Assembly (NCBI GenBank): GCA_046154695.1
Contig: JBJXFI010000413.1
Location: 9,823-73,822, forward strand
Length of the DNA stretch: 64,000 nt
Source: Blastocatellia bacterium
GTDB taxonomy: Bacteria; Acidobacteriota; Blastocatellia; RBC074
Reading direction: 5' to 3'
Position numbers and translations under genes: made by a program. Numbering within the stretch: the first letter of the stretch is position 1; each line of letters opens with the position of its first letter. The notes under the pieces are model-generated. The model saw only the letters and a list, made by a program, of their open reading frames with translations, did not search any database and was not told the origin of the DNA. Shown piece by piece: positions 4,729 to 64,000 of this stretch.

Positions 4729-4826
4729 GGATAACGGAACAGCCGGAAATAACGGAACAAACGAAACAAGACCGGGAAGAGTCCGTTTGTTCCGTTATTT
4801 CCGGCTGTTTCGTGCTCTCTTCTTTT
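4729..4826. repeat. inverted-repeat element family S (GGAAATAACGGAACAAACG ... CGTTTGTTCCGTTATTTCC); second copy at 38563-38645
   Basis: perfect 19-bp arms around a 23-nt loop; 85 percent identical truncated copy upstream of wzm. Confidence 0.75.
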
Positions 4827-4951: not shown

Positions 4952-6175
4952 ATGAGATTTTTCGAGGGAGTCAGAATCGCGCTCAGCAGTTTGCGGGCGA
5001 ACAAGCTGCGGTCCGTCTTGACACTGCTGGGGGTGATCTTCGGCGTGATGACGGTGGTGGCGGTGGCGTCGGTGATCCAGGGGTTTTTCGGCTATGTGGA
5101 TCGAACGGTGACGGCGGATCTGGGATCGAACACGGTGGTGGTGGACAAGTACGGGATCATCGCGAGTTTCGAGGACTACATTAACGCGAGCCGGCGCAAC
5201 AAGGATCTGACGATCGGGGACGCCGCCTATTTGCGGGAACGGCTGACGCTGGCCCGGGAAGTGGGCGTGCAGGGGTTTTCGAGCGCGGAGGTGCGGTCGC
5301 CGTCCGAGAAGATGACCAACGTCAACATCAAGGGCAACACGGCCAACATGGTCAATATCGACGCGACGCAGCCCGAGCTGGGCCGGTATATCAGCGAGCT
5401 GGATGACACCAACCGGCGGACGACGGCGTTGATCGGGGTGGAGATTGCCGACAAGCTGTTCGGGAGCCGGGATGTCGTCGGGCGGGAGATCAAGATCAAC
5501 GGGATGCCGTTCGAGGTGATCGGGGTGGCGAAGGAGCAGGGATCGTTTTTCGGGCAGTCGCGGGACGATTTCGTGATCATCCCGCTTTCGACCCATCAGA
5601 AGATGTGGGGCTCGCGGCAGAGCCTGACCTTTTCATTGAAGGCGCGGGATGGAGTGGACCTGAAGACGTTCGAGGATCAGATCCGCATGCTGATGCGGGC
5701 GCGCCACCGGCTGGGCTACAGCGAAAAGGACACCTTCGGGTTGGTGACGGCGGATGCGATCAACAATTTCGTGCAGGCGCTTTTCGGGATCATTGCCGCC
5801 GTGGCGCTGGGGGTGGTCTCGATCTCGCTGGTGGTGGGGGGAATCGTGATCATGAACATCATGCTGGTGACGGTGACCGAGCGGACGCGGGAGATCGGGA
5901 TTCGAAAGAGTCTGGGGGCGCGCCGCCGGGACATTCTGATCCAGTTTCTGGTCGAATCGACGACGCTTTCGCTGGTGGGTGGCCTGATCGGGCTGGGGGT
6001 GGCGTACGCGATTTCGAAGCTGCTGGTGGCGCTGACGCCGATTCCGGCGGAGCTGCCGGTCTGGTCCGCCGTGCTGGCGATCGGGGTATCGAGCGGCGTC
6101 GGCCTGGTTTTCGGCATCTATCCGGCCTGGAAGGCGGCGAAGCTGGATCCCATCGTCGCGCTCAGATCGGAGTAG
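4952..6175 (+). CDS. ABC transporter permease, FtsX/MacB family (MacB periplasmic domain + FtsX 4-TM)
   Basis: N-terminal LRANKLRSVLTLLGVIFGV TM1, large periplasmic domain, C-terminal FtsX TM bundle with RTREIGIRKSLGA; start taken at ATG 4952. Confidence 0.85.
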   Translation: MRFFEGVRIALSSLRANKLRSVLTLLGVIFGVMTVVAVASVIQGFFGYVDRTVTADLGSNTVVVDKYGIIASFEDYINASRRNKDLTIGDAAYLRERLTLAREVGVQGFSSAEVRSPSEKMTNVNIKGNTANMVNIDATQPELGRYISELDDTNRRTTALIGVEIADKLFGSRDVVGREIKINGMPFEVIGVAKEQGSFFGQSRDDFVIIPLSTHQKMWGSRQSLTFSLKARDGVDLKTFEDQIRMLMRARHRLGYSEKDTFGLVTADAINNFVQALFGIIAAVALGVVSISLVVGGIVIMNIMLVTVTERTREIGIRKSLGARRRDILIQFLVESTTLSLVGGLIGLGVAYAISKLLVALTPIPAELPVWSAVLAIGVSSGVGLVFGIYPAWKAAKLDPIVALRSE

Positions 6176-9571: not shown

Positions 9572-12010
9572 ATGATCGGCGAAACGATTTCACATTATCG
9601 CATCCTCGAACGACTGGGTGTGGGCGGCATGGGCGAGGTCTTCAAGGCCGAGGACACGCGCCTGCAGCGCCAGGTCGCGTTGAAGCTCATGATGGGCGAC
9701 GAGCGGCAGTTCGACCAGATGCGGGGGCGGTTCCTCCGCGAGGCCCGGGCCGCGAGCGCGATCAGCCATCCCAACATCGCGACCATCTACGAGATCGATG
9801 AGGTGGAGCGCGAGGGGCGTCGATACAGTTTCATCGTGATGGAGTATGTCGAGGGGCGCATCCTGAAGGAGATTCTCGGCGCCGTCTCGCTGATGGAGGC
9901 GCTGGAGATCATCGATCAGATGGTGGACGGGCTGGCGGCGGCGCATGAGCGGGGGATCGTTCACCGGGACATCAAGCCGTCGAACGTGATGGTCACGCCG
10001 GCGCAGCTGGTCAAGATTCTCGATTTCGGCGTCGCGAAATACGCGCCTCCGGTGTTGGAGGACGACGTCACGGCGAGCCTTCTTGCGACGGATGTCATGC
10101 ATACCATGCCGGGGACGGTGGTTGGAACCTACACGTATATGTCGCCGGAACAGGCGCGGGGGCTGGATGTCGATCACCGGAGCGATATCTTTTCGCTGGG
10201 CGTTCTCGCGTATGAGCTGATCACGGGGCGGCAGCCGTTCGAGGGAAAAAACGTGCTGGCCATTGTGGATTCGATTCTTCACAGCGCGCCGCTCCCGCTC
10301 GGACGGTACAACGCGCACGTGAACGGCGACCTGGAGCGGTTCATCTTTCGTATGCTGGAGAAGAGCCGGGATCTGCGGTATCAGAGCCTGCGCGACGCGT
10401 CGGTCGATCTGGAGCAGGTGCGCGTGGGCGTGACCCGCCCGCTTCCGGCGGTGAGTTACGAGACCAACATTGGATATGCCACGCAGTTGCTCCCCGGGGC
10501 GGCGCGCGATTCGGGGACGTTCACGCTGCGGAAACGCTCCGGCAAGAGCGTGGCCGTGCTCAGCTTCACGAATGTGACCCGCCGGTCCGAAGACGACTGG
10601 CTGGGTGTGGGGATCGCCGAGACGGTCACCTCCGATTTGAAGAACATCGAGGGGATCACGGTCATCGGCCGCGAGCGGATCTACGAGGCGCTGCGCCATT
10701 GGAACGAGGACCTGCGGGCCGATTTCGACGAGAAGATGGCGACCCGGATCGGGCAGGAGATCGGCGCGCGCTGGATCATCGGCGGGGCCTATCAGCGCCT
10801 CGGCGACCTGCTGCGCATCACCGCGCGGCTGGTGGAGGTCGAGACGGGCGAGATCGCCAAGACCGTCAAGATCGACGGGATGATCAGCGAGGTCTTCGCC
10901 CTGCAGGACAAGATCGTGTATGAGCTTTCCCGCAATCTCGATCTGAGCATCCGCAGCGGCGAGCGGGAGGCGATCGAACAGCCCGAGACGAATGTGATCG
11001 ATGCCTATGAGGCCTATGTCAAGGGGCAGGAGCTCGCCTTTGCCGGGACGCCAGAAAGCATCGATCAGGCGATTGAACTCGCCCGGAAGGCGATCGCGCT
11101 CGATCCGGCCTATGCGCATGCCTACGCGGTGCTGGCCTATGCCATGACCATCAAGGGGCAGTTCACGTCCGACCGGGAGCTGATCGCGCAGGCGGTCGAG
11201 CATGCCCAGAAGGCCATCGAATTGCGGCCGAATCTGGCCGACAGCTACGGCATTCTCGGCATCGCCTTCACGGCGCTGGATCGCGAGGATGACGCCATCG
11301 GCGCGATCAACCGCGCGCTCGCCTTCGCGCCGAATGACAGCCTGGTCCGCGCCAGCCTGGGCCGCGCCTATTTCGTCGGCAAGGGGAAGTTCAAGGAGGC
11401 CGCGGCGGAATACGATCAGGCGATGGAGAACCCGGGGGAGAATAACTGGATCGCCTCCGCGCTGGCCCATGTGCTGCTCTATACCGGCGATTACCGTCGC
11501 GCGGAGGAACTGGCGCGGGTCTCCATCCAATCCCAGGAGCAGTATGCCCTCAATCACGAGGGCATACAGGTGATCGGCTCCTATATGCGGCTGGGGCAGG
11601 CGCTTTATCTTCAGCGGCGGTATGACGAGGCGATCGCGGAGTTCAAGCGGGAGTTCGAATTTTTACAGACCAGCGGGCACGCGATGCGGGATCGCGTCCT
11701 GATCGAGATTCATCAGAAGCTCGCCTGCGCCTACATGCGGCTCGGAAAAATGGACGAGGCCCGCGACGAATACGAACAGGCCCTGGCCGGTTTCGACGCG
11801 CGTCTGCAACAGGGGGCGGATGACCCTTTCACCAGATATTACATGGCCTGCGCGTCGGCGGTGATGGGCGAAACGGACGCGGCATTCGATCATCTGCGCA
11901 TCGCCATCGAGAGGCGCCGCAACTTCAACGCGGCCCGCGCCCGGGTCGAGTTCGATCTGGAGGGCCTGCGCGAGGACGCGCGGTTCCAGGAACTGATTGA
12001 TCGACGGTAG
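9572..12010 (+). CDS. serine/threonine protein kinase with C-terminal TolB-N-like and TPR repeat domains
   Basis: GVGGMGEVFKA, VALK, HRDIKPSNVMV, DFGVAK, SPEQ kinase subdomains; TPR-like repeats in C-terminal half. Confidence 0.9.
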   Translation: MIGETISHYRILERLGVGGMGEVFKAEDTRLQRQVALKLMMGDERQFDQMRGRFLREARAASAISHPNIATIYEIDEVEREGRRYSFIVMEYVEGRILKEILGAVSLMEALEIIDQMVDGLAAAHERGIVHRDIKPSNVMVTPAQLVKILDFGVAKYAPPVLEDDVTASLLATDVMHTMPGTVVGTYTYMSPEQARGLDVDHRSDIFSLGVLAYELITGRQPFEGKNVLAIVDSILHSAPLPLGRYNAHVNGDLERFIFRMLEKSRDLRYQSLRDASVDLEQVRVGVTRPLPAVSYETNIGYATQLLPGAARDSGTFTLRKRSGKSVAVLSFTNVTRRSEDDWLGVGIAETVTSDLKNIEGITVIGRERIYEALRHWNEDLRADFDEKMATRIGQEIGARWIIGGAYQRLGDLLRITARLVEVETGEIAKTVKIDGMISEVFALQDKIVYELSRNLDLSIRSGEREAIEQPETNVIDAYEAYVKGQELAFAGTPESIDQAIELARKAIALDPAYAHAYAVLAYAMTIKGQFTSDRELIAQAVEHAQKAIELRPNLADSYGILGIAFTALDREDDAIGAINRALAFAPNDSLVRASLGRAYFVGKGKFKEAAAEYDQAMENPGENNWIASALAHVLLYTGDYRRAEELARVSIQSQEQYALNHEGIQVIGSYMRLGQALYLQRRYDEAIAEFKREFEFLQTSGHAMRDRVLIEIHQKLACAYMRLGKMDEARDEYEQALAGFDARLQQGADDPFTRYYMACASAVMGETDAAFDHLRIAIERRRNFNAARARVEFDLEGLREDARFQELIDRR

Positions 12011-12020
12011 TTGAATAAAA

Positions 12021-12103
12021 TCGTTTGGGGTTCCGCCTTCAGGGGGCCGGCCGTTCGCAAAGCCCGGCGGCCTGAAGGCGGAACTCCAAACGATTTCCGA
12101 GGA
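12021..12103. repeat. REP-like nested palindrome (R-family) copy R1: TCGTTTGGGGTTCCGCCTTCAGG ... CCTGAAGGCGGAACTCCAAACGA
   Basis: 22-bp arms, inner CCGCCTTCAGGCGG itself palindromic; copies at 19910, 32419, 44677, 47561 plus half-copies 38662 and 63661. Confidence 0.85.
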
Positions 12104-12322
12104 GCTTTCATGTCGCGTGGCGACGCCCGGAAACAATGAAATGCATGGTGGCACAAGCTGTCCAGCTTGTGCCTGGTGTAAGGTGCGCGTGAAGAGTCCG
12201 GCGGGGCGGGCGCCTGAAGGGGTCTCGTTCGAGGCCCGGACTTTTTCTGGTAGTGTCTGCCAGACACTCTCGGATGCGGCACAAGCTGGACAGCTTGTGC
12301 CACTTTTTCCGAGGAGCGGTTC
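12104..12322. repeat. composite palindromic repeat (P-family) bounded by two 24-bp palindromes GGCACAAGCTGTCCAGCTTGTGCC / GGCACAAGCTGGACAGCTTGTGCCAC, with internal terminator-like module GGGGTCTCGTTCGAGGCCCGGACTTTTTCT
   Basis: about 80 percent identical to 63675-63888 and to window start; ends 1 bp before ATG of 12323 gene and contributes its GAGGAG RBS. Confidence 0.8.
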
Positions 12323-13348
12323 ATGGATGCCCTTTCCCGATTCGAATCCATTCCGCGATTGAATTTCGGCCATTACCCGACGCCGATCGAAGAGCTGCCG
12401 CGGCTGCGGGAGGCGCTGGGGGCGGGCGCGCCGCGCATCTTCATCAAGCGGGACGATTACACGGGGCCGGGGTTCGGGGGGAACAAGGTTCGCAAGCTGG
12501 AATACGTTCTGGCGGGGGCGCGGGCCGAGGGCGCGGATGTCGCCGTCTCGTGCGGCGGAGAGAAATCGAATCACGCGCGGGTGACGGCCGCGTTGTGCGC
12601 GCGGCTCGGGCTGCGCTGCGTGCTGGTGCTGAATCCGGCCGCTGTGACGTATGACGGGCTGACGCCGGCGAGCCTGGCGGCGGACCACTGGTTTGGGGCG
12701 GAGATCGTCCGCGCGGCGAATCGCGAGGAGCGGATCGCGATGCTCGATGCGACGGGGGAGCGGCTTCGCGCGGAGGGGCGCAAGGTCGCGGTGATTCCGC
12801 TCGGCGGCTCGGTTCCCCTGGGCGCGATGGGCTTCGTTCGCGGCGTGCGGGAGACGCTGGCGCAGCTCGATGCGATGAACGTGCGGATTCGCTGGGTGTT
12901 TCATTCGAGCTCTTCCGGCGGGACGCAGGCCGGCATCATTTCAGGCGCGCGGCTCTTCGGCTGGGATGGGGTGCGGGTGCTCGGCGTCAGCCCGGACGAT
13001 CCGGCCGAATCGATTGGCGCAGAGGTCGGGCGCATCATTCGCGGCGTGGGCGAGATGCTCGGCGCGGAGCTCGACGAGCGCGCCGTCGTGCTGGACGATT
13101 ATGCGGGCGACGGCTACGGCATCCCTTCGCCGCGGGGAGAGGAGGCGCTGGCCCTGCTCGCCCGCACCGAAGGCATTCTGCTCGATCCGGTCTATACCGC
13201 AAAGGCCATGGCCGCGCCGCTCGACTGGATCCGCGCCGGGAACATCGCTCCCGAAGAGAATGTCCTCTTCTGGCATACCGGGGGACAACTGGCGCTGTTT
13301 TACGTGCCGGATCATCCCGCGCCCGCGCGAACCCGGGAGAAGAAATAA
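12323..13348 (+). CDS. PLP-dependent D-cysteine desulfhydrase / ACC deaminase family protein
   Basis: collinear with E. coli DcyD (FIKRDD...GGNKxRKLE...SNHxR...LDPVYTxKAM). Confidence 0.8.
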   Translation: MDALSRFESIPRLNFGHYPTPIEELPRLREALGAGAPRIFIKRDDYTGPGFGGNKVRKLEYVLAGARAEGADVAVSCGGEKSNHARVTAALCARLGLRCVLVLNPAAVTYDGLTPASLAADHWFGAEIVRAANREERIAMLDATGERLRAEGRKVAVIPLGGSVPLGAMGFVRGVRETLAQLDAMNVRIRWVFHSSSSGGTQAGIISGARLFGWDGVRVLGVSPDDPAESIGAEVGRIIRGVGEMLGAELDERAVVLDDYAGDGYGIPSPRGEEALALLARTEGILLDPVYTAKAMAAPLDWIRAGNIAPEENVLFWHTGGQLALFYVPDHPAPARTREKK

Positions 13349-19851: not shown

Positions 19852-19909
19852 CTTCAATCCCTCGTGGCAAAATGTCGGTGGAAAAACGGCCGCATCTTAC
19901 CATGCAATG

Positions 19910-19964
19910 TTCGGAGTTCCGCCTTCAGGCGGTCAGTCTTCGCCAAAAAGGCGGAACTCCAAAC
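19910..19964. repeat. REP-like R-family copy R2 (TTCGGAGTTCCGCCTTCAGGCGG ... GGCGGAACTCCAAAC)
   Basis: shares arms with R1; immediately followed by CCGAGGAGC SD-like sequence and ATG 19977. Confidence 0.8.
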
Positions 19965-19976
19965 CCGAGGAGCGAA

Positions 19977-20321
19977 ATGTCACAATCGAGAATCGATGCC
20001 TTCCTCATTATGACGAAGACCCAGCCCGAGAACGAGATGATCTGGTACGGGCTGGCGAATGAATACACGAAGCTCTCGGCATGGCCGGAAGCGATCGACG
20101 CGCTCCGCAATGTGATCCGGATCAAGCCGGATTACACATCGGCTTATCAGTTGCTCGGTTCCGCGCTGTTGAGCCAGGGCCAGGCCGAGGAGGCGCGCCG
20201 CGTGTGGACGGAAGGCCTCGCCGTCGCGGACCGAACCGGCGCCTGGAAGGCCCGGCAGCATATGGAAGGGTTGCTGGCCGGAGCGGCGAATGAGGGCGAG
20301 GCCGGATTTTGCGAGGAATAA
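19977..20321 (+). CDS. TPR repeat protein (small)
   Basis: TPR-like helical repeats (WYGLANEY...AIDALRNVIRIKPDYTSAYQLLGSALLSQGQAEEA); upstream part of track ORF is repeat translation. Confidence 0.65.
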   Translation: MSQSRIDAFLIMTKTQPENEMIWYGLANEYTKLSAWPEAIDALRNVIRIKPDYTSAYQLLGSALLSQGQAEEARRVWTEGLAVADRTGAWKARQHMEGLLAGAANEGEAGFCEE

Positions 20322-32359: not shown

Positions 32360-32418
32360 CAGCAGGATCAGAAGGGCGGCGTAAATAATCTTTTCGAGAA
32401 TAGGGGCTCCTCAGAAAC

Positions 32419-32484
32419 TGTTTGGAGTTCCGCCTTCAGGCGGTCGGTCTCGCGCCAACCGCCTGAAGGCGGAACTCCGAACGG
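32419..32484. repeat. REP-like R-family copy R3
   Basis: TGTTTGGAGTTCCGCCTTCAGGCGG ... CCGCCTGAAGGCGGAACTCCGAACGG; minus-strand GAGGAGC SD-like sequence adjacent. Confidence 0.85.
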
Positions 32485-32521: not shown

Positions 32522-32905
32522 TTATTGGGTCTTCCAGAGACTCTCGTATTCCGCGCGATACGCGCGATACCATCGCTCCAGCGCCGCCACCTGTCGGCGT
32601 TCCCGGCGCATCAGATATACGCCGTGCAGCCGGACCAGAAGAATGATCGGACAGACCGTAACGAGAATGGCTCCGACGAAGGGGGCCTGCCCCGCCAGCA
32701 GCATATATCCGAGCAGCGCGCCGAAGACCGGGAGCAGGATCGTTAAATCATGCAGAAAGCTGATCCAGATCGATCTCTTCCTCGGTTCGGCTTTGGGAAC
32801 CGGAAGAATCAGCAGCGCGGACAGCGGCGGCGCGGAAACCAATTGACGATCATTCAGATGAACGGGCCGATTAACGGGCTGATGAACGGACGCTTCAGGG
32901 GTCAT
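32522..32905 (-). CDS. small membrane protein, hypothetical
   Basis: ATG start, two predicted TM helices, 127 aa. Confidence 0.5.
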   Translation of the reverse strand: MTPEASVHQPVNRPVHLNDRQLVSAPPLSALLILPVPKAEPRKRSIWISFLHDLTILLPVFGALLGYMLLAGQAPFVGAILVTVCPIILLVRLHGVYLMRRERRQVAALERWYRAYRAEYESLWKTQ

Positions 32906-38562: not shown

Positions 38563-38645
38563 CGGGATAGCGGAACAGACGGAAATAACGGAACAAACGA
38601 AACAAGACCAGGAAGAGACCGTTTATTCCGTGCTCTCTTCTTTCG
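38563..38645. repeat. S-family repeat, truncated copy
   Basis: GGGATAGCGGAACAGACGGAAATAACGGAACAAACGAAACAAGACCAGGAAGAGACCGTTTATTCCGTGCTCTCTTC. Confidence 0.7.
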
Positions 38646-38661
38646 TTAACTTAACGTCATT

Positions 38662-38686
38662 GGCCTGAAGGCGGGACTCCGAACGG
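38662..38686. repeat. R-family half element (3' arm only) just upstream of wzm start
   Basis: GGCCTGAAGGCGGGACTCCGAACGG. Confidence 0.6.
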
Positions 38687-43623: not shown

Positions 43624-44718
43624 CAAATCACTTTTGTCTTGCCCATGTACCTCGATGTTCCGTCGGGCGGGTTCAAGGTGGTGTATGAATACGCGAACCG
43701 CCTGCAGGCCCGCGGCCATCGCGTGACGCTGATTCATCCGCGGACGATCGAACGCGCGCCGGGCGCGGTGGAAGCGTTCAAGCGGTTCGCATGGCGTTAC
43801 AAGATCCGCCTGAGGGATCGCCCGCTGGTTCCGTGGTTTCCGCTTCATCCGGGGGTGCGGGCGCTGCTGGCTCCCGATCTGGGCGCGGAGTCGATTCCAC
43901 CGGGAGACGCGATCTTCGCCACGGCTTTTGAAACCTCCTTCCCGGTCTATGCATGTCCGGCCGACCGCGGGCGGAAGTTTTACCTGATCCAATCCTACGA
44001 AGAATGGAACGGGCCGAAAGAGAAGGTGCGGGAGAGCTGGCGCCTGCCGCTGCGAAAGGTGGTCGTCTCGCGCAGGTTGATGGCGCACGCCCGCGAACTC
44101 GGCGTGGGCGAAAGCACGGTGCTGATTCCGATCGGGCTGGATTTTTCACAATTCCGGGCAACGACGCCGATCGATCGACGGCCCACGCTCCGCGTCGGGA
44201 TGGTGGCGCACCCGAACGAGCTCAAGGGGATGCGCGACGGCATCGCGGCGCTGGAGATGGCGCGGGCGGAGATCCCGGATCTGCGGGCCGTGCTTTTCGG
44301 AACGCCGCCGCGCGATGCGGCCATCCCGGCCTGGATGGATTATCTGCAACGCCCCGCGCCGGAGCGGATGGTCTCGCTCCACAATTCCTGCCGGATCTTT
44401 CTGCATCCGAGCCGGGCGGAAGGCTGGGGGCTGCCCGCGGCCGAGGCGATGGCTTGCGGCTGCGCCCTCGTATCGGCCGATAACGGCGGCGTGCACGAGT
44501 TCGCCACGGATGAGGTGAGCGCGCTGATCGCGCCCATCAAATCGCCGCCGGAACTGGCGCGGCGCATCGTCCGGCTGCTTCGCGACGATGAGCTGCGGCA
44601 GCGCATCGCAAGGGCGGGCGCCGAACAGGTGGGGCAATTCACCTGGGACCGCGCCGTTGATCAATTGGAGCAATTGTTCGGAGTTCCGCCTTCAGGCGGA
44701 CTGACCATGGAGAAATAG
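43621..44718 (+). CDS. glycosyltransferase family 4 (GT-B)
   Basis: GGxxxxxxxxA N-terminal GT4 fold, EGWGLPAAEAMACG C-terminal motif; last 13 codons lie inside REP copy R4. Confidence 0.85.
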   Translation: MQITFVLPMYLDVPSGGFKVVYEYANRLQARGHRVTLIHPRTIERAPGAVEAFKRFAWRYKIRLRDRPLVPWFPLHPGVRALLAPDLGAESIPPGDAIFATAFETSFPVYACPADRGRKFYLIQSYEEWNGPKEKVRESWRLPLRKVVVSRRLMAHARELGVGESTVLIPIGLDFSQFRATTPIDRRPTLRVGMVAHPNELKGMRDGIAALEMARAEIPDLRAVLFGTPPRDAAIPAWMDYLQRPAPERMVSLHNSCRIFLHPSRAEGWGLPAAEAMACGCALVSADNGGVHEFATDEVSALIAPIKSPPELARRIVRLLRDDELRQRIARAGAEQVGQFTWDRAVDQLEQLFGVPPSGGLTMEK

Positions 44719-44747
44719 GTTCCGCCTGAAGACGGAACTCCAAACGG
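44677..44747. repeat. REP-like R-family copy R4, overlapping 3' end of GT4 gene and abutting next ATG
   Basis: TTCGGAGTTCCGCCTTCAGGCGG ... CCGCCTGAAGACGGAACTCCAAACGG. Confidence 0.85.
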
Positions 44748-47560: not shown

Positions 47561-47632
47561 GTTCGGGGTTCCGCCTTCAGGCGGAATTGTCGCAATGAAA
47601 AATCGACCGCCTGAAGGCGGAACTCCGAACGG
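47561..47632. repeat. REP-like R-family copy R5 at the 5' end of the hypothetical secreted-protein gene
   Basis: GTTCGGGGTTCCGCCTTCAGGCGG ... CCGCCTGAAGGCGGAACTCCGAACGG; ATG 47595 lies in the loop. Confidence 0.85.
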
Positions 47633-47651: not shown

Positions 47652-49238
47652 ATGCTGTTGATCGTGATGCCAATGGCGAGGGCGCAGCCGCCTGCCGTCG
47701 CGGAAGCCATTCGGGCGGAGGCGCTGCGGCCGGACCTGGATGTCGCCGACCGGCCGCTGCCGCTCGCGGGCCACTGGAATCTCGGCGAGGGGCGGGACGG
47801 GTTCGGCCCGGAATACCAGATGCGTATGCTGGACCGGGGCCATCACCTGCTGCCGTGGTTTCTGATGCCCAACGAGCAGGCCAATCCCGAGGACCCGCGC
47901 TGGCGTAGCTATTACGAGGGGGCGTTCCGGCGCGCGGCGCAATTGCGCCTGCCGATTTCGCTGATCGGGACGCAATGGGAGCAGATGCTCTCGGTCGAGC
48001 AGGAATATCTCGATCTCCCGCCGGAGCAGAACCCGAACGTCGTGCAGGGCGATGGAAAGATCCGCCGGGAGGTCTCGCCCTTCGGCCCGATCGGCGCATG
48101 GTACGAGGCGGGACAGCGTTGGGGATCGACCGCGATGTTGAAGCGGCTGCAGGATCTTTATCCCGATCCGCCTCTGGTCGTCTTCGTTTCGAATCACGAA
48201 CACGCCAAATTGCAATGGCCGAAGGCCGAGGAGGATCGCCGGTTCGGCAGGCTTTTTGGCGACGGCCGCGACGATGAGTTCAAGCGTCGGATCGTCGGCG
48301 ATGGCTGGATCGCGCGATATCGGGCGCTGCAGGCCGGGTTGCGGGATGGGCTGACCAATGCCAATTGGAAAGCGAAGGCGATCTTTATCGGGTACGACGC
48401 TTTCGGGCCGGCGCATTTCGGCCGGTGGGCGGGGTGGATGGAGTACGCCCTCAACAGCAAGAGGCGCATCGATCCGTGGGTTCACGCCTGGGACGGCGGC
48501 TCGCCCTCGTTCTATGTCTACAATTGGGCGGCGGTGACGGACTACACGGTGTTCAGCCCGCAGGTCGAGACCATGAACTGGGTTTTTATGCAGGACGAGG
48601 CGCGCCGCGTTCATCAGGGATCGGGGCGCAACTTCTGGTTTGAGATGTCGGTCTGGGACGGCCACGAGCCCGCGCAGGAGAACGACAAGCGGAAGACCTA
48701 CGCCCGGTCGGGGCAGCGGTTCACGCCGGAGCGATACGGCGGCATGGCGCAGTTCGGGATGTGGCTGCTGCGCCCGCGCGTCGTGCGGGAATTTCGCGGG
48801 TGGCAGGATACGCTCGCCCAGGCCGAGCCCTACTTCACGCCGATCGTGGAGGCCGTCGATCGCGTGCACGAAAATCCGGTCCTGCGCGAATTCTGGCGGC
48901 GGGGGCGGCTTGTGGCCAACCGGGCGCATGCCCATCCGTATCAGACGGCCGTGCCGCCGGAATATCAGAATCTCGACCGCTGGTTTCTGCTCGACACCTC
49001 GGCCGATCCGCGACGGCCGTGGGAACTGGGGACGCCGCTGCCGGTCTTTTCCCTGGCGCTGGTGACGGGCAGCGCGCCGCGGCGCCAGTGGCTGGTCTAT
49101 GCCCACGCGCCTCTCGGCGCGCGCAATTCGATCTCGGTGACGATTCCGGACTATCGCGCCGTCAATATCGATGTCTCGCTCGGCGGATCGTATTATCTGG
49201 TGGAAGAGCGGACCGGCCGCGCACAGCCAGTGAAATGA
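47652..49238 (+). CDS. hypothetical secreted protein (about 529 aa), no recognisable family; alternative start 47595 inside REP would give a longer signal peptide
   Basis: long uninterrupted ORF in operon frame; signal-peptide-like LLGMLLIVMPMARA-QPP; Trp/aromatic-rich. Confidence 0.6.
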   Translation: MLLIVMPMARAQPPAVAEAIRAEALRPDLDVADRPLPLAGHWNLGEGRDGFGPEYQMRMLDRGHHLLPWFLMPNEQANPEDPRWRSYYEGAFRRAAQLRLPISLIGTQWEQMLSVEQEYLDLPPEQNPNVVQGDGKIRREVSPFGPIGAWYEAGQRWGSTAMLKRLQDLYPDPPLVVFVSNHEHAKLQWPKAEEDRRFGRLFGDGRDDEFKRRIVGDGWIARYRALQAGLRDGLTNANWKAKAIFIGYDAFGPAHFGRWAGWMEYALNSKRRIDPWVHAWDGGSPSFYVYNWAAVTDYTVFSPQVETMNWVFMQDEARRVHQGSGRNFWFEMSVWDGHEPAQENDKRKTYARSGQRFTPERYGGMAQFGMWLLRPRVVREFRGWQDTLAQAEPYFTPIVEAVDRVHENPVLREFWRRGRLVANRAHAHPYQTAVPPEYQNLDRWFLLDTSADPRRPWELGTPLPVFSLALVTGSAPRRQWLVYAHAPLGARNSISVTIPDYRAVNIDVSLGGSYYLVEERTGRAQPVK

Positions 49239-63489: not shown

Positions 63490-63660
63490 AGAATCCGATC
63501 GACCTTCGTGAAGTTAACATGCGAGTGATTCTTATCATTATCGTAGATTGACGGCAACACCGGCTCGGAAAAAATGTCCGAGTGATAAAGAGACGCAGGA
63601 GACCCCATAGCTGACAAGCAGACAGGCCGCGGGTACAATCGGCCGAGATTTCAGAGCGGC

Positions 63661-64000
63661 GGGAAACTCCAAACAATTTCCGAGAAGCCGTCATGTCGCG
63701 TGACGACGCCCGGAGACAATGAAAAGCATGGTGGCACAAGCTGTCCAGCTTGTGCCGAGTGTGTGTGTGGGCGTGAAGAGTGCGTCGCGTCGCGCGGCGG
63801 AAGGGGTCTCGTTCGAGGCCCGGTCTTTTTCCGGGAGTGTCTGGTGGATGCGGCACAAGCTGGACAGCTTGTGCCACATTTTCCAAAGCATGGTGGCACA
63901 AGCTGTCCAGCTTGTGCTGAGTGTGTGTGTGGGCGTGAAGAGTGCGTCGCGTCGCGCGGCGGAAGGGGTCTCGTTCGAGGCCCGGTCTTTTTCCGGGAGT
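63661..64000. repeat. R-family half arm followed by two tandem units (about 162 bp each) of the composite palindromic P-family repeat, running off the window end
   Basis: GGGAAACTCCAAAC...CATGGTGGCACAAGCTGTCCAGCTTGTGCC...GGCACAAGCTGGACAGCTTGTGCCAC repeated at 63727 and 63889; the 92-nt segment GAGTGTGTGTGTGGGCGTGAAGAGTGCGTCGCG...GTCTTTTTCCGGGAGT (63757-63848 = 63919-64000) is repeated exactly. Confidence 0.85.

Follow-up and report, generated by a model that had tools for sequence, protein, structure and literature searches.

Repetitive extragenic palindromes with a GGAG tag in a Blastocatellia contig and their association with RAYT-type transposase genes in relatives

We analyzed a family of short hairpin-forming repeats in a 64,000-nt stretch of DNA from a Blastocatellia bacterium (Acidobacteriota; assembly GCA_046154695.1, contig JBJXFI010000413.1, positions 9,823 to 73,822 of the forward strand), hereafter called the window. 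The window contains 12 copies of a 24-nt unit, GTTYGGAGTY followed by CCGSS-TTYA-SSCGG, where none would be expected by chance. These repeats are, with high confidence, ordinary repetitive extragenic palindromic (REP) elements, mostly paired as REP doublets forming hairpins (REPINs), and they belong to a family whose partner is a 206-aa HUH/tyrosine transposase of the REP-associated tyrosine transposase (RAYT) type. As a class, REPs and REPINs are small DNA parasites that depend on such a transposase for their spread. The identification is carried by the anatomy of the repeat, the covariation of its stem, its arrangement in doublets, its association with RAYT genes in relatives and its extragenic placement, all of which were observed directly.

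Results

Anatomy of the Repeat Unit and Its Doublets

Each unit opens with a 10-nt single-stranded tag, GTTYGGAGTY, and continues into a hairpin made of a 5-bp stem and a 4-nt loop. When up to three mismatches were allowed, GGAGTTCCGCCTTCAGGCGG was found 10 times in the window against an expectation of 0.01, and the 24-nt unit GTTTGGAGTTCCGCCTTCAGGCGG, with up to six substitutions, was found 11 times against none in shuffled sequences. The twelfth unit is degenerate, with an eroded hairpin, and was detected through its tag alone. A preliminary description of this DNA had listed five full and two half copies of a REP-like family, and these are indeed present: the 12 units form five inverted doublets, with their tags pointing outward, and two singles (Table 1). 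The label REP-like was correct and is now firm; a cognate RAYT gene bracketed by the same unit is found in relatives (see below). The inner CCGCCTTCAGGCGG, which had been called palindromic, reads CCGCC-TTCA-GGCGG and is thus a 5-bp stem with a 4-nt loop rather than a strict palindrome.

The doublets are 56 to 74 nt long, with spacers of 8 to 22 nt that differ from copy to copy, and the repeats occur about once per 10 kb, neighbors being ~3 to 12 kb apart. Folded as single-stranded DNA, the five doublets give energies of −20 to −36 kcal/mol (z −5.9 to −11.4), with R1 at −36.4 kcal/mol (z −9.1) and R3 at −34.2 kcal/mol (z −11.4). The family therefore has the features by which REPs are recognized, namely a short unit (24 nt, within the usual ~20 to 40 nt) forming an imperfect stem-loop palindrome and many dispersed, mostly extragenic copies (12 units in 64 kb). 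It also has those of REPINs, inverted REP pairs with a short spacer that fold into one long hairpin and outnumber the singlets, here by five to two.

Covariation of the Stem

Among 499 distinct units, conservation is sharply bounded at both 24-nt borders, with the consensus GTTYGGAGTY, C-C-G-S-S, T-T-Y-A, S-S-C-G-G. Four stem variants predominate (CCGCC, CCGGC, CCGCG and CCGCA), every one of them matched by its exact complement, and the loop reads TTCA or TTTA; tag and loop are fixed while the stem bases covary. Covariation was quantified on 132 distinct units that were chosen by the tag alone, from loci fetched through protein similarity. In this set 97.4% of the stem cells are paired, compared to 84.1% in shuffles, and 59 cells are changed on both sides, compared to 13.5; the observed values were reached in 0 of 500 shuffles. 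Sliding the register lowered pairing to 54% or less. Thus, the stem-loop is under selection as a structure. Moreover, in loci retrieved with an exact 20-mer of the repeat (see below), the partner arm often has another hairpin (CCGCG-TAAA-CGCGG or CCGGC-TAAA-GCCGG), after which AACTCCRAAC follows again. What is conserved is therefore the 10-nt tag plus any small hairpin and not a long inverted repeat.

These data bear on the idea that the repeats are binding sites for a chromosomal protein, such as gyrase, an IHF-like protein or a nucleoid-organizing factor, and are kept for chromosome architecture. Bacterial interspersed mosaic elements (BIMEs) of Escherichia coli bind gyrase, IHF and Pol I, and a spacing of about one site per 10 kb would suit such a role. 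However, the covariation preserves intrastrand pairing rather than duplex sequence, the spacers vary in sequence as well as length, and the density of the repeats differs strongly among genomes (only two perfect-stem units are present in the 20 kb around the RAYT gene of locus L194). As the data contain no sign of such a protein either, we consider an architectural function highly improbable.

A RAYT Bracketed by the Repeat in Relatives

All-against-all clustering of the open reading frames (ORFs) of 113 loci returned common families only and no recurrent repeat-linked gene; a fixed neighbor is not expected of dispersed elements. A RAYT was found after this clustering, through a regular expression for the HUH and tyrosine motifs. 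The hit, a 206-aa ORF in a Candidatus Udaeobacter metagenome-assembled genome (MAG) (L038:3738-4358, minus strand), carries NHYH as its HUH motif and YVHHNPV as its tyrosine motif. It matches the NCBIfam model for REP-associated tyrosine transposases, NF047646, with E = 1.3e-21, and aligns to E. coli TnpA_REP (PDB 4ER8) with E = 6e-4 over both catalytic motifs, NHYH being paired with EHMH and NYVHHNPVKH with DYIYINPVKH. The partner enzyme in relatives thus combines the marks of a RAYT: a Y1 HUH fold, an HUH and a single tyrosine motif and similarity to TnpA_REP. REPs in both orientations bracket the Udaeobacter gene, with GTTTTGGAGTTCCGCCTTCAGGCGG at one flank and CCGCCTAAAGGCGGAACTCCAAAC at the opposite one. 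H91, H93 and Y151 are invariant in the family, which has a proline-rich N terminus (PWHSPPHRPN) and is large: a word-index search gave 1749 matches at E < 1e-5, and among 50%-identity representatives there were 3070 at E ≤ 0.001 and 92 at E ≤ 1e-30.

The linkage between enzyme and repeat was also evident in a metagenome scan made with the RAYT protein alone, which yielded 80 loci. A REP pointing at the gene lies upstream in 63 of the 78 evaluable loci, with a median distance of 19 nt to the ATG, and an inverted REP follows within 250 nt downstream in 67 of 74. A RAYT gene flanked by these REPs, the arrangement termed a REPtron, is therefore present in the relatives L038, L194 and L197 and in most of the 80 metagenomic loci. 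REP-flanked RAYT genes also occur on a 6.6-Mb MAG contig and in a MAG of the Tepidisphaerales (Planctomycetota), which in addition carries arrays of GTTCGGAGTMCCGGCTTCAGCCGG. The preliminary description had proposed looking for a RAYT gene elsewhere, and relatives indeed supply one, bracketed by the window's own REP unit, in Udaeobacter and in the metagenomic loci.

Variation among these loci is informative about recognition. At a RAYT locus whose protein cluster has a member named "Acidobacteria bacterium," the REPs read GTTCGGAGTG-CGAGC-TTTA-GCTCG, with tag and loop unchanged and a different stem, and various stems coexist around a single RAYT gene. One enzyme would thus tolerate several stems, which argues for recognition of shape and tag. 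In the cultured Prosthecobacter fusiformis, a homologous RAYT gene is flanked by GTTTTGTAGTCCCGGCTTTAGCCGG doublets that have GTAG at the tag position; GGAG therefore occupies the canonical GTAG position.

The same data speak to whether the 24-nt arms could instead be the terminal inverted repeats of miniature inverted-repeat transposable elements (MITEs) that descend from an insertion sequence of the DDE type. The elements are short (56 to 74 nt), have inverted ends and a variable interior and are dispersed in many copies, as MITEs are. Direct repeats that would represent target-site duplications are nevertheless absent from all five doublets. Every arm forms a hairpin of its own with compensatory changes, stems may differ between the two arms of an element (CCGCC versus CCGCG or CCGGC) and lone arms occur, while the sole gene found between arms encodes a Y1 HUH transposase and not a DDE enzyme. 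A DDE-type MITE was therefore rejected, and the chance that this origin is correct appears very slight. Other classes were discarded on anatomy. Integron attC sites carry RYYYAAC ... GTTRRRY at their ends, whereas the ends of the window elements are 5′-GTTYGGA ... TCCRAAC-3′, which is opposite in order, and TCCAAAC is incompatible with RYYYAAC; there are also no cassette arrays. A CRISPR array does not fit copies that lie ~3 to 12 kb apart in the window, and the sole tandem array (locus L103, see below) has near-identical "spacers." A DNA-uptake sequence was likewise rejected on its anatomy.

Several observations weigh against the assignment to REPs and a RAYT. The literal GT[AG]G tetranucleotide is absent, the invariant tag being GGAG, located 2 nt from the stem inside GTTYGGAGTY; the 5-bp stem is at the short end of the REP range; and tblastn of the 64-kb window revealed no RAYT within it. 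The Udaeobacter protein scores 77 bits against NF047646, just below the curated cutoff of 80, and has no Pfam match, while some of its relatives carry PF01797. REPs, mostly as REPINs, with a RAYT partner are nevertheless the reading that we hold with high confidence.

Distribution of the Repeat across Phyla

What is unusual about this family is that an exact 20-mer is nearly unchanged in several bacterial phyla. A scan for this 20-mer, with one genome per species, returned at least 113 stretches: at least 47 in Verrucomicrobiota, 26 in Acidobacteriota, 22 in Planctomycetota, 7 in Lentisphaerae and 4 in Desulfobacteraceae, with a few others. The copies are usually doublets, and doublets were seen in loci from Verrucomicrobiota, Acidobacteriota and Planctomycetota. 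Since contigs of 1.6 to 5.4 Mb are among these loci, mis-binning does not explain the spread. RAYT homologs are likewise found in proteins named for Verrucomicrobiota, Tepidisphaerales and Acidobacteria. On a 1.6-Mb Acidobacteriota contig (L103, 5097-6264), a 78-nt REP heterodimer is repeated in tandem 14.9 times with 95% matches; it joins a CCGCC-TTCA type to an inverted CCGCG-TTTA type and resembles a BIME cluster.

A few 20-mers lack the GTTY tag or a partner (L039 5934-5953 in Streptomyces humi, L040 and L069) and were judged to be chance coding sequence and not counted as REPs. For the Streptomyces copy this is most likely the case, its reverse strand reading RLKAELQ. The REPs are thus slightly less widespread than raw 20-mer counts suggest. 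A single REP-RAYT lineage, with a near-invariant 10-nt tag and loop and common to at least three phyla (the 20-mers occur in Desulfobacterota as well), is one possible explanation, which we put forward tentatively and regard as less probable than its negation.

Placement Relative to Genes

A self-trained gene map of the window contains 49 genes and is 90.7% coding. All seven repeat sites are extragenic or overlap gene ends only. By Pfam, the genes next to them encode a Ser/Thr kinase with TPR repeats, a PLP-dependent enzyme, a PQQ propeller, a TPR protein, an O-antigen ligase and GT4 and GT2 glycosyltransferases, all of which are ordinary chromosomal genes. When the window's proteins were compared by tblastn with taxon-labeled loci, the best match was to an Acidobacteria MAG, at 75% identity across 226 aa. 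At four of the seven sites the host gap measures ~30 to 160 nt, which leaves elements of 56 to 74 nt little choice but to touch a start or stop codon. In other genomes 40% of the sites lie deep inside an open frame of at least 450 nt, compared to 75% of random positions, and spurious open frames, abundant in GC-rich DNA, make even the 40% an upper bound. Genes are thus depleted of the elements, yet not free of them. As an example of a copy within a gene, a REP doublet lies in frame within a His-rich ORF, at the same place in two Verrucomicrobiota MAGs (L003 ~130-260 and L071 ~5400-5520); it is apparently a tolerated intragenic REPIN.

Five of the seven tags in the window have GAGGAGC or GGGAGC after them within 10 nt. 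This closeness of a Shine-Dalgarno-like CCGAGGAGC to the tag is local to the window: in other genomes, the complement of GGAG (CTCC) is present in 4.1% of 121 distinct outer flanks, compared to 6.4% in controls, and is thus not enriched. Preferential insertion beside Shine-Dalgarno sequences, which the GGAG of the tag resembles, was rejected on the same grounds. In these 121 flanks, words containing stop codons (TTAG, TAGC and TAAC) are ~3-fold enriched. In the window, two of the five cases of a Shine-Dalgarno sequence plus ATG belong to a second, unrelated repeat family and not to genes, and that family also explains part of the four matches to TTTCCGAGGAGC found with at most one mismatch. 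The suggestion that the elements are more intimate with genes than classic REPs or BIMEs did not survive, given that REPs at ORF termini are already documented, that the contact is largely forced and that the closeness to Shine-Dalgarno sequences is absent elsewhere. REPs near stop codons are said, in work of Liang, Rudd and Deutscher from 2015, to influence translation.

Placement is where a further alternative has to be weighed, namely that the hairpins are mainly selected cis-regulatory RNA elements (3′ stabilizers or attenuators, 5′-UTR structures or devices for translational coupling) and were not spread by a RAYT. Very stable folds and stem covariation are equally expected of RNA, and the Shine-Dalgarno-like words near five window tags, the arms of R4 that surround a stop codon and abut the next ATG, and the enrichment of stop-codon words in outer flanks across genomes would all suit regulation. 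In contrast, the sites show no fixed polarity relative to transcription, since they occur at either end of genes, between divergent genes and within ORFs and the doublets are symmetric; the Shine-Dalgarno complement is unenriched in flanks elsewhere, gene-free tandem arrays occur and the tight association with transposase genes would be left unexplained. The repeats also match no Rfam family at gathering or relaxed thresholds: the whole window gave no match at the gathering thresholds, and a relaxed search around R1 gave chance-level matches to miRNAs and snoRNAs only, far below the cutoffs. (No tRNA or tmRNA genes are present in the window.) Regulatory side effects would fit RAYT-spread REPINs as well, and we consider RNA elements as the primary identity of the repeats unlikely.

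The Seven Sites in the Window

The seven sites are listed in Table 1.

Table 1. REPINs and single REP units in the window
Element	Position	REP units (strand)	Remarks
REPIN R1	12018..12096	12023-12046(+), 12068-12091(-)	21-nt spacer
REPIN R2	19909..19964	19909-19932(+), 19941-19964(-)	(+) unit intact; (-) unit degenerate, hairpin CCGCC-TTTTT-GGCG
REPIN R3	32420..32482	32420-32443(+), 32459-32482(-)	15-nt spacer
Single REP unit	38661..38684	(-)	GTTCGGAGTCCCGCCTTCAGGCCA, 4 mismatches
REPIN R4	44676..44745	44676-44699(+), 44722-44745(-)	
REPIN R5	47561..47630	47561-47584(+), 47607-47630(-)	
Degenerate REP remnant	63657..63674	(-)	Tag AACTCCAAAC intact, hairpin eroded

R1, R2 and R3 had been described as followed by a Shine-Dalgarno-like sequence and a start codon. 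This applies to R2 and R3, which lie near the Shine-Dalgarno sequences of genes, but not to R1. R1, the inverted repeat of which reaches out to AAATC/GATTT, lies 12 nt past the stop codon (12008-12010) of the Ser/Thr kinase-TPR gene 9572-12010. The start codon at 12111 past R1 opens an ORF of nine codons only, which is part of a different repeat, and the true next gene begins at 12323. R2 is located between the divergent gene starts 19857 (minus) and 19977 (plus), with GAGGAGC 3 nt and the ATG at 19977 12 nt past the tag. R3 lies 39 nt downstream of the stop codon of a minus-strand ORF (32522-32905); the O-antigen-ligase gene, on the minus strand, has its Shine-Dalgarno sequence GAGGAGC 7 nt away from R3. 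This GAGGAGC is followed 5 nt later by an ATT codon (32399-32401), the apparent start of the ligase gene; were translation to begin at GTG 32359, the first start listed, the protein would lack the hydrophobic ILEKIIYAALLILL, which resembles a first transmembrane helix.

The left unit and spacer of R4 encode the final 13 residues (FGVPPSGGLTMEK) and the stop of the GT4 glycosyltransferase, as had been noted; the TAG (44716-18) falls inside the spacer, and the ATG of the following GT2 gene (44750) is 4 nt beyond the right arm. GT4 homologs in the PDB align as far as the residue at which the REP-coded tail starts. R4 has therefore replaced only a dispensable end of the GT4 protein, and for this C terminus the claim that the elements rewrite protein termini is borne out. 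For R5 such rewriting is only probable. R5 lies 38 nt past the stop codon of the GT2 gene (47522) and had been thought to cover the start of a 529-aa gene, but the 529-codon reading starts at 47652, 21 nt beyond R5, so that the overlap exists only if the ATG at 47595, in the R5 spacer, is used. Translation from this ATG gives MKNRPPEGGTPNGFRWLLGMLLIVMPMARA, a far better signal peptide than the truncated one obtained from 47652. Judged from these predicted N termini, 47595 is likely the start of a secreted 547-aa protein, in which case the right unit of R5 would encode PPEGGTPN in the n-region of the signal peptide.

The single REP at 38661-38684 sits 18 nt upstream of an ATG (38703), with GGGAGC after its tag. 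On the minus strand it continues into GGCCAATGACGTTAAGTTAACGAAAGAAGAG (window 38640-38684), which resembles the REP-adjoining GGCCAATGGCATTAAGTTAAGCAAGAAGAG in a Blastocatellia MAG (L065 ~2830-2870). This likeness raises the possibility of a larger composite element that distant genomes have in common. The remnant at 63657-63674 is the left margin of a composite repeat that recurs at 12082-12179 and is described next.

Other Repeats in the Window

The second, unrelated repeat family is ~165 to 173 nt long, with 27-nt inverted-repeat ends built on the palindrome GGCACAAGCTG(TC/GA)CAGCTTGTGCC. It is found at 1-49, 12139-12313, 63723-63887 and 63885-64000, so that two tandem copies stand at the right end of the window. 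It gave six matches against zero expected, and its RNA fold reaches −101 kcal/mol (z = −8.6); it has no Rfam match and is absent from 200 fetched loci. A composite stretch of 98 nt links the two families: 12082-12179 and 63665-63762 are 91% identical, begin inside the REP tag (AACTCCAAAC), carry TTTCCGAGRAGC and run into the left end of the second family. The composite includes a mini-ORF of nine codons, MSRGDARKQ* or MSRDDARRQ*. Both the "half copy" at 63661 and the "Shine-Dalgarno sequence and start codon" past R1 are parts of it. A third repeat, a 67-nt long hairpin (CGGAACAGCCGGAAATAACGGAACAAACG ... CGTTTGTTCCGTTATTTCCGGCTGTTTCG), occurs at 4729-4795 and 38565-38631 with 93% identity; similar words (GATAACGGAACAGRCGAAATAAG) lengthen the REPIN arms in an Acidobacteria MAG (L005).

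Discussion

A Possible Route of Spread

By analogy with E. coli TnpA_REP and the IS200/IS605 transposases, we infer that a single-copy RAYT, encoded elsewhere in the window's own genome, would bind the folded hairpin and the GGAG-bearing tag on single-stranded DNA, probably at the replication fork. Cutting and rejoining of the strand by this enzyme could then copy or move REPINs. Copies that land inside genes would be purged by selection, and the survivors would accumulate in short intergenic gaps, where contact with start and stop codons is presumably inevitable; a few copies may be tolerated in dispensable ORF ends, as in R4 and probably R5. Effects on RNA might arise as by-products. Transcribed 3′ hairpins may protect or attenuate the upstream mRNA (R1, R3 and R4), and structure may form next to ribosome-binding sites (R2, R3 and R4). 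At R4, a ribosome terminating in the spacer would have melted the left arm, which would free the right arm beside the following ATG. REPINs of this kind, with arms around one stop codon and abutting the next start codon, could enforce translational coupling.

The arrangement of the RAYT loci can be read in the same framework. A RAYT gene between outward-tagged REPs looks like a giant version of a window doublet, which fits the published idea that REPINs are nonautonomous derivatives of the flanks of RAYT genes.

Implications

For annotation, the repeats account for seven odd gene boundaries, including a REP-encoded GT4 tail and a probable REP-encoded signal-peptide segment, and small ORFs created by the repeats should not be called as genes. 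The data also document a GGAG-tagged REP family and a RAYT clade in Verrucomicrobiota, Planctomycetota and Acidobacteriota, phyla in which REPs have so far been described for a handful of cultured strains. Conservation across phyla opens two questions to study in public genomes, namely the horizontal movement of REPIN-RAYT systems and the nature of the constraint on the tag. If interphylum transfer were true, it would contradict the prevailing picture of strictly vertical, lineage-specific inheritance; if the recognition sequence has instead been held in extreme stasis, the family would offer a natural system for the study of RAYT-REP recognition.

Comparison with Known Systems

The nearest known system is that of the GTAG-tagged REPs, BIMEs and REPINs, such as the Y and Z units of E. 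coli, GTAG-1 of Pseudomonas and GTAG-17 to 20 of Opitutus terrae (PMC3733652; Bertels and Rainey 2011). Like these, the window family has a conserved 5′ tag followed by a hairpin, its inverted doublets are joined tail to tail across variable spacers, two stem types combine into heterodimers, and there are tandem arrays and units that flank a single RAYT gene; it is also mainly extragenic with occasional copies at ORF termini. Unlike these, its tag is GGAG inside the 10-mer GTTYGGAGTY and not GT[AG]G, its stem is just 5 bp and its TTYA loop is fixed. Published REP families tolerate variation at tag positions two and three, GGAG not being among the listed variants (PMC3733652). Most REP families, moreover, are limited to a species or genus, whereas the exact 20-mer of the window family is found in several phyla. 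The REP motif and its peptides are absent from the text and supplements of PMC3733652 and PMC6006769; a literature search by sequence words gave unrelated primer matches only, and a search for RAYTs in Verrucomicrobia turned up nothing beyond Di Nocera et al. (2013).

Among described RAYTs, the partner enzyme is closest in its motifs to subclass 2.8 (Quentin et al. 2018, PMC6006769), in which the HUH motif takes the form HYH and the N terminus is proline-rich, as seen here in NHYH, YVHHNPV and PWHSPPHRPN, and the gene of which is similarly flanked by REPs. The original account of subclass 2.8 concerned Cyanobacteria and "long canonical" GT[AG]G REPs, and mentioned relatives in other phyla (PMC6006769). 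The partner RAYT, in contrast, is hosted by Verrucomicrobiota, Tepidisphaerales and Acidobacteria, and its REPs are short and carry a GGAG tag; motif resemblance thus makes it a candidate member of this subclass.

More distantly, the subterminal hairpins of IS200/IS605 elements and of their nonautonomous derivatives, the palindrome-associated transposable elements (PATEs), are similar in that a Y1 HUH enzyme recognizes a hairpin together with adjacent bases on single-stranded DNA. The window REPs differ from IS200/IS605 elements in having neither left- and right-end asymmetry nor TnpB, in not carrying the enzyme gene along, and in that the partner enzyme belongs to the RAYT branch.

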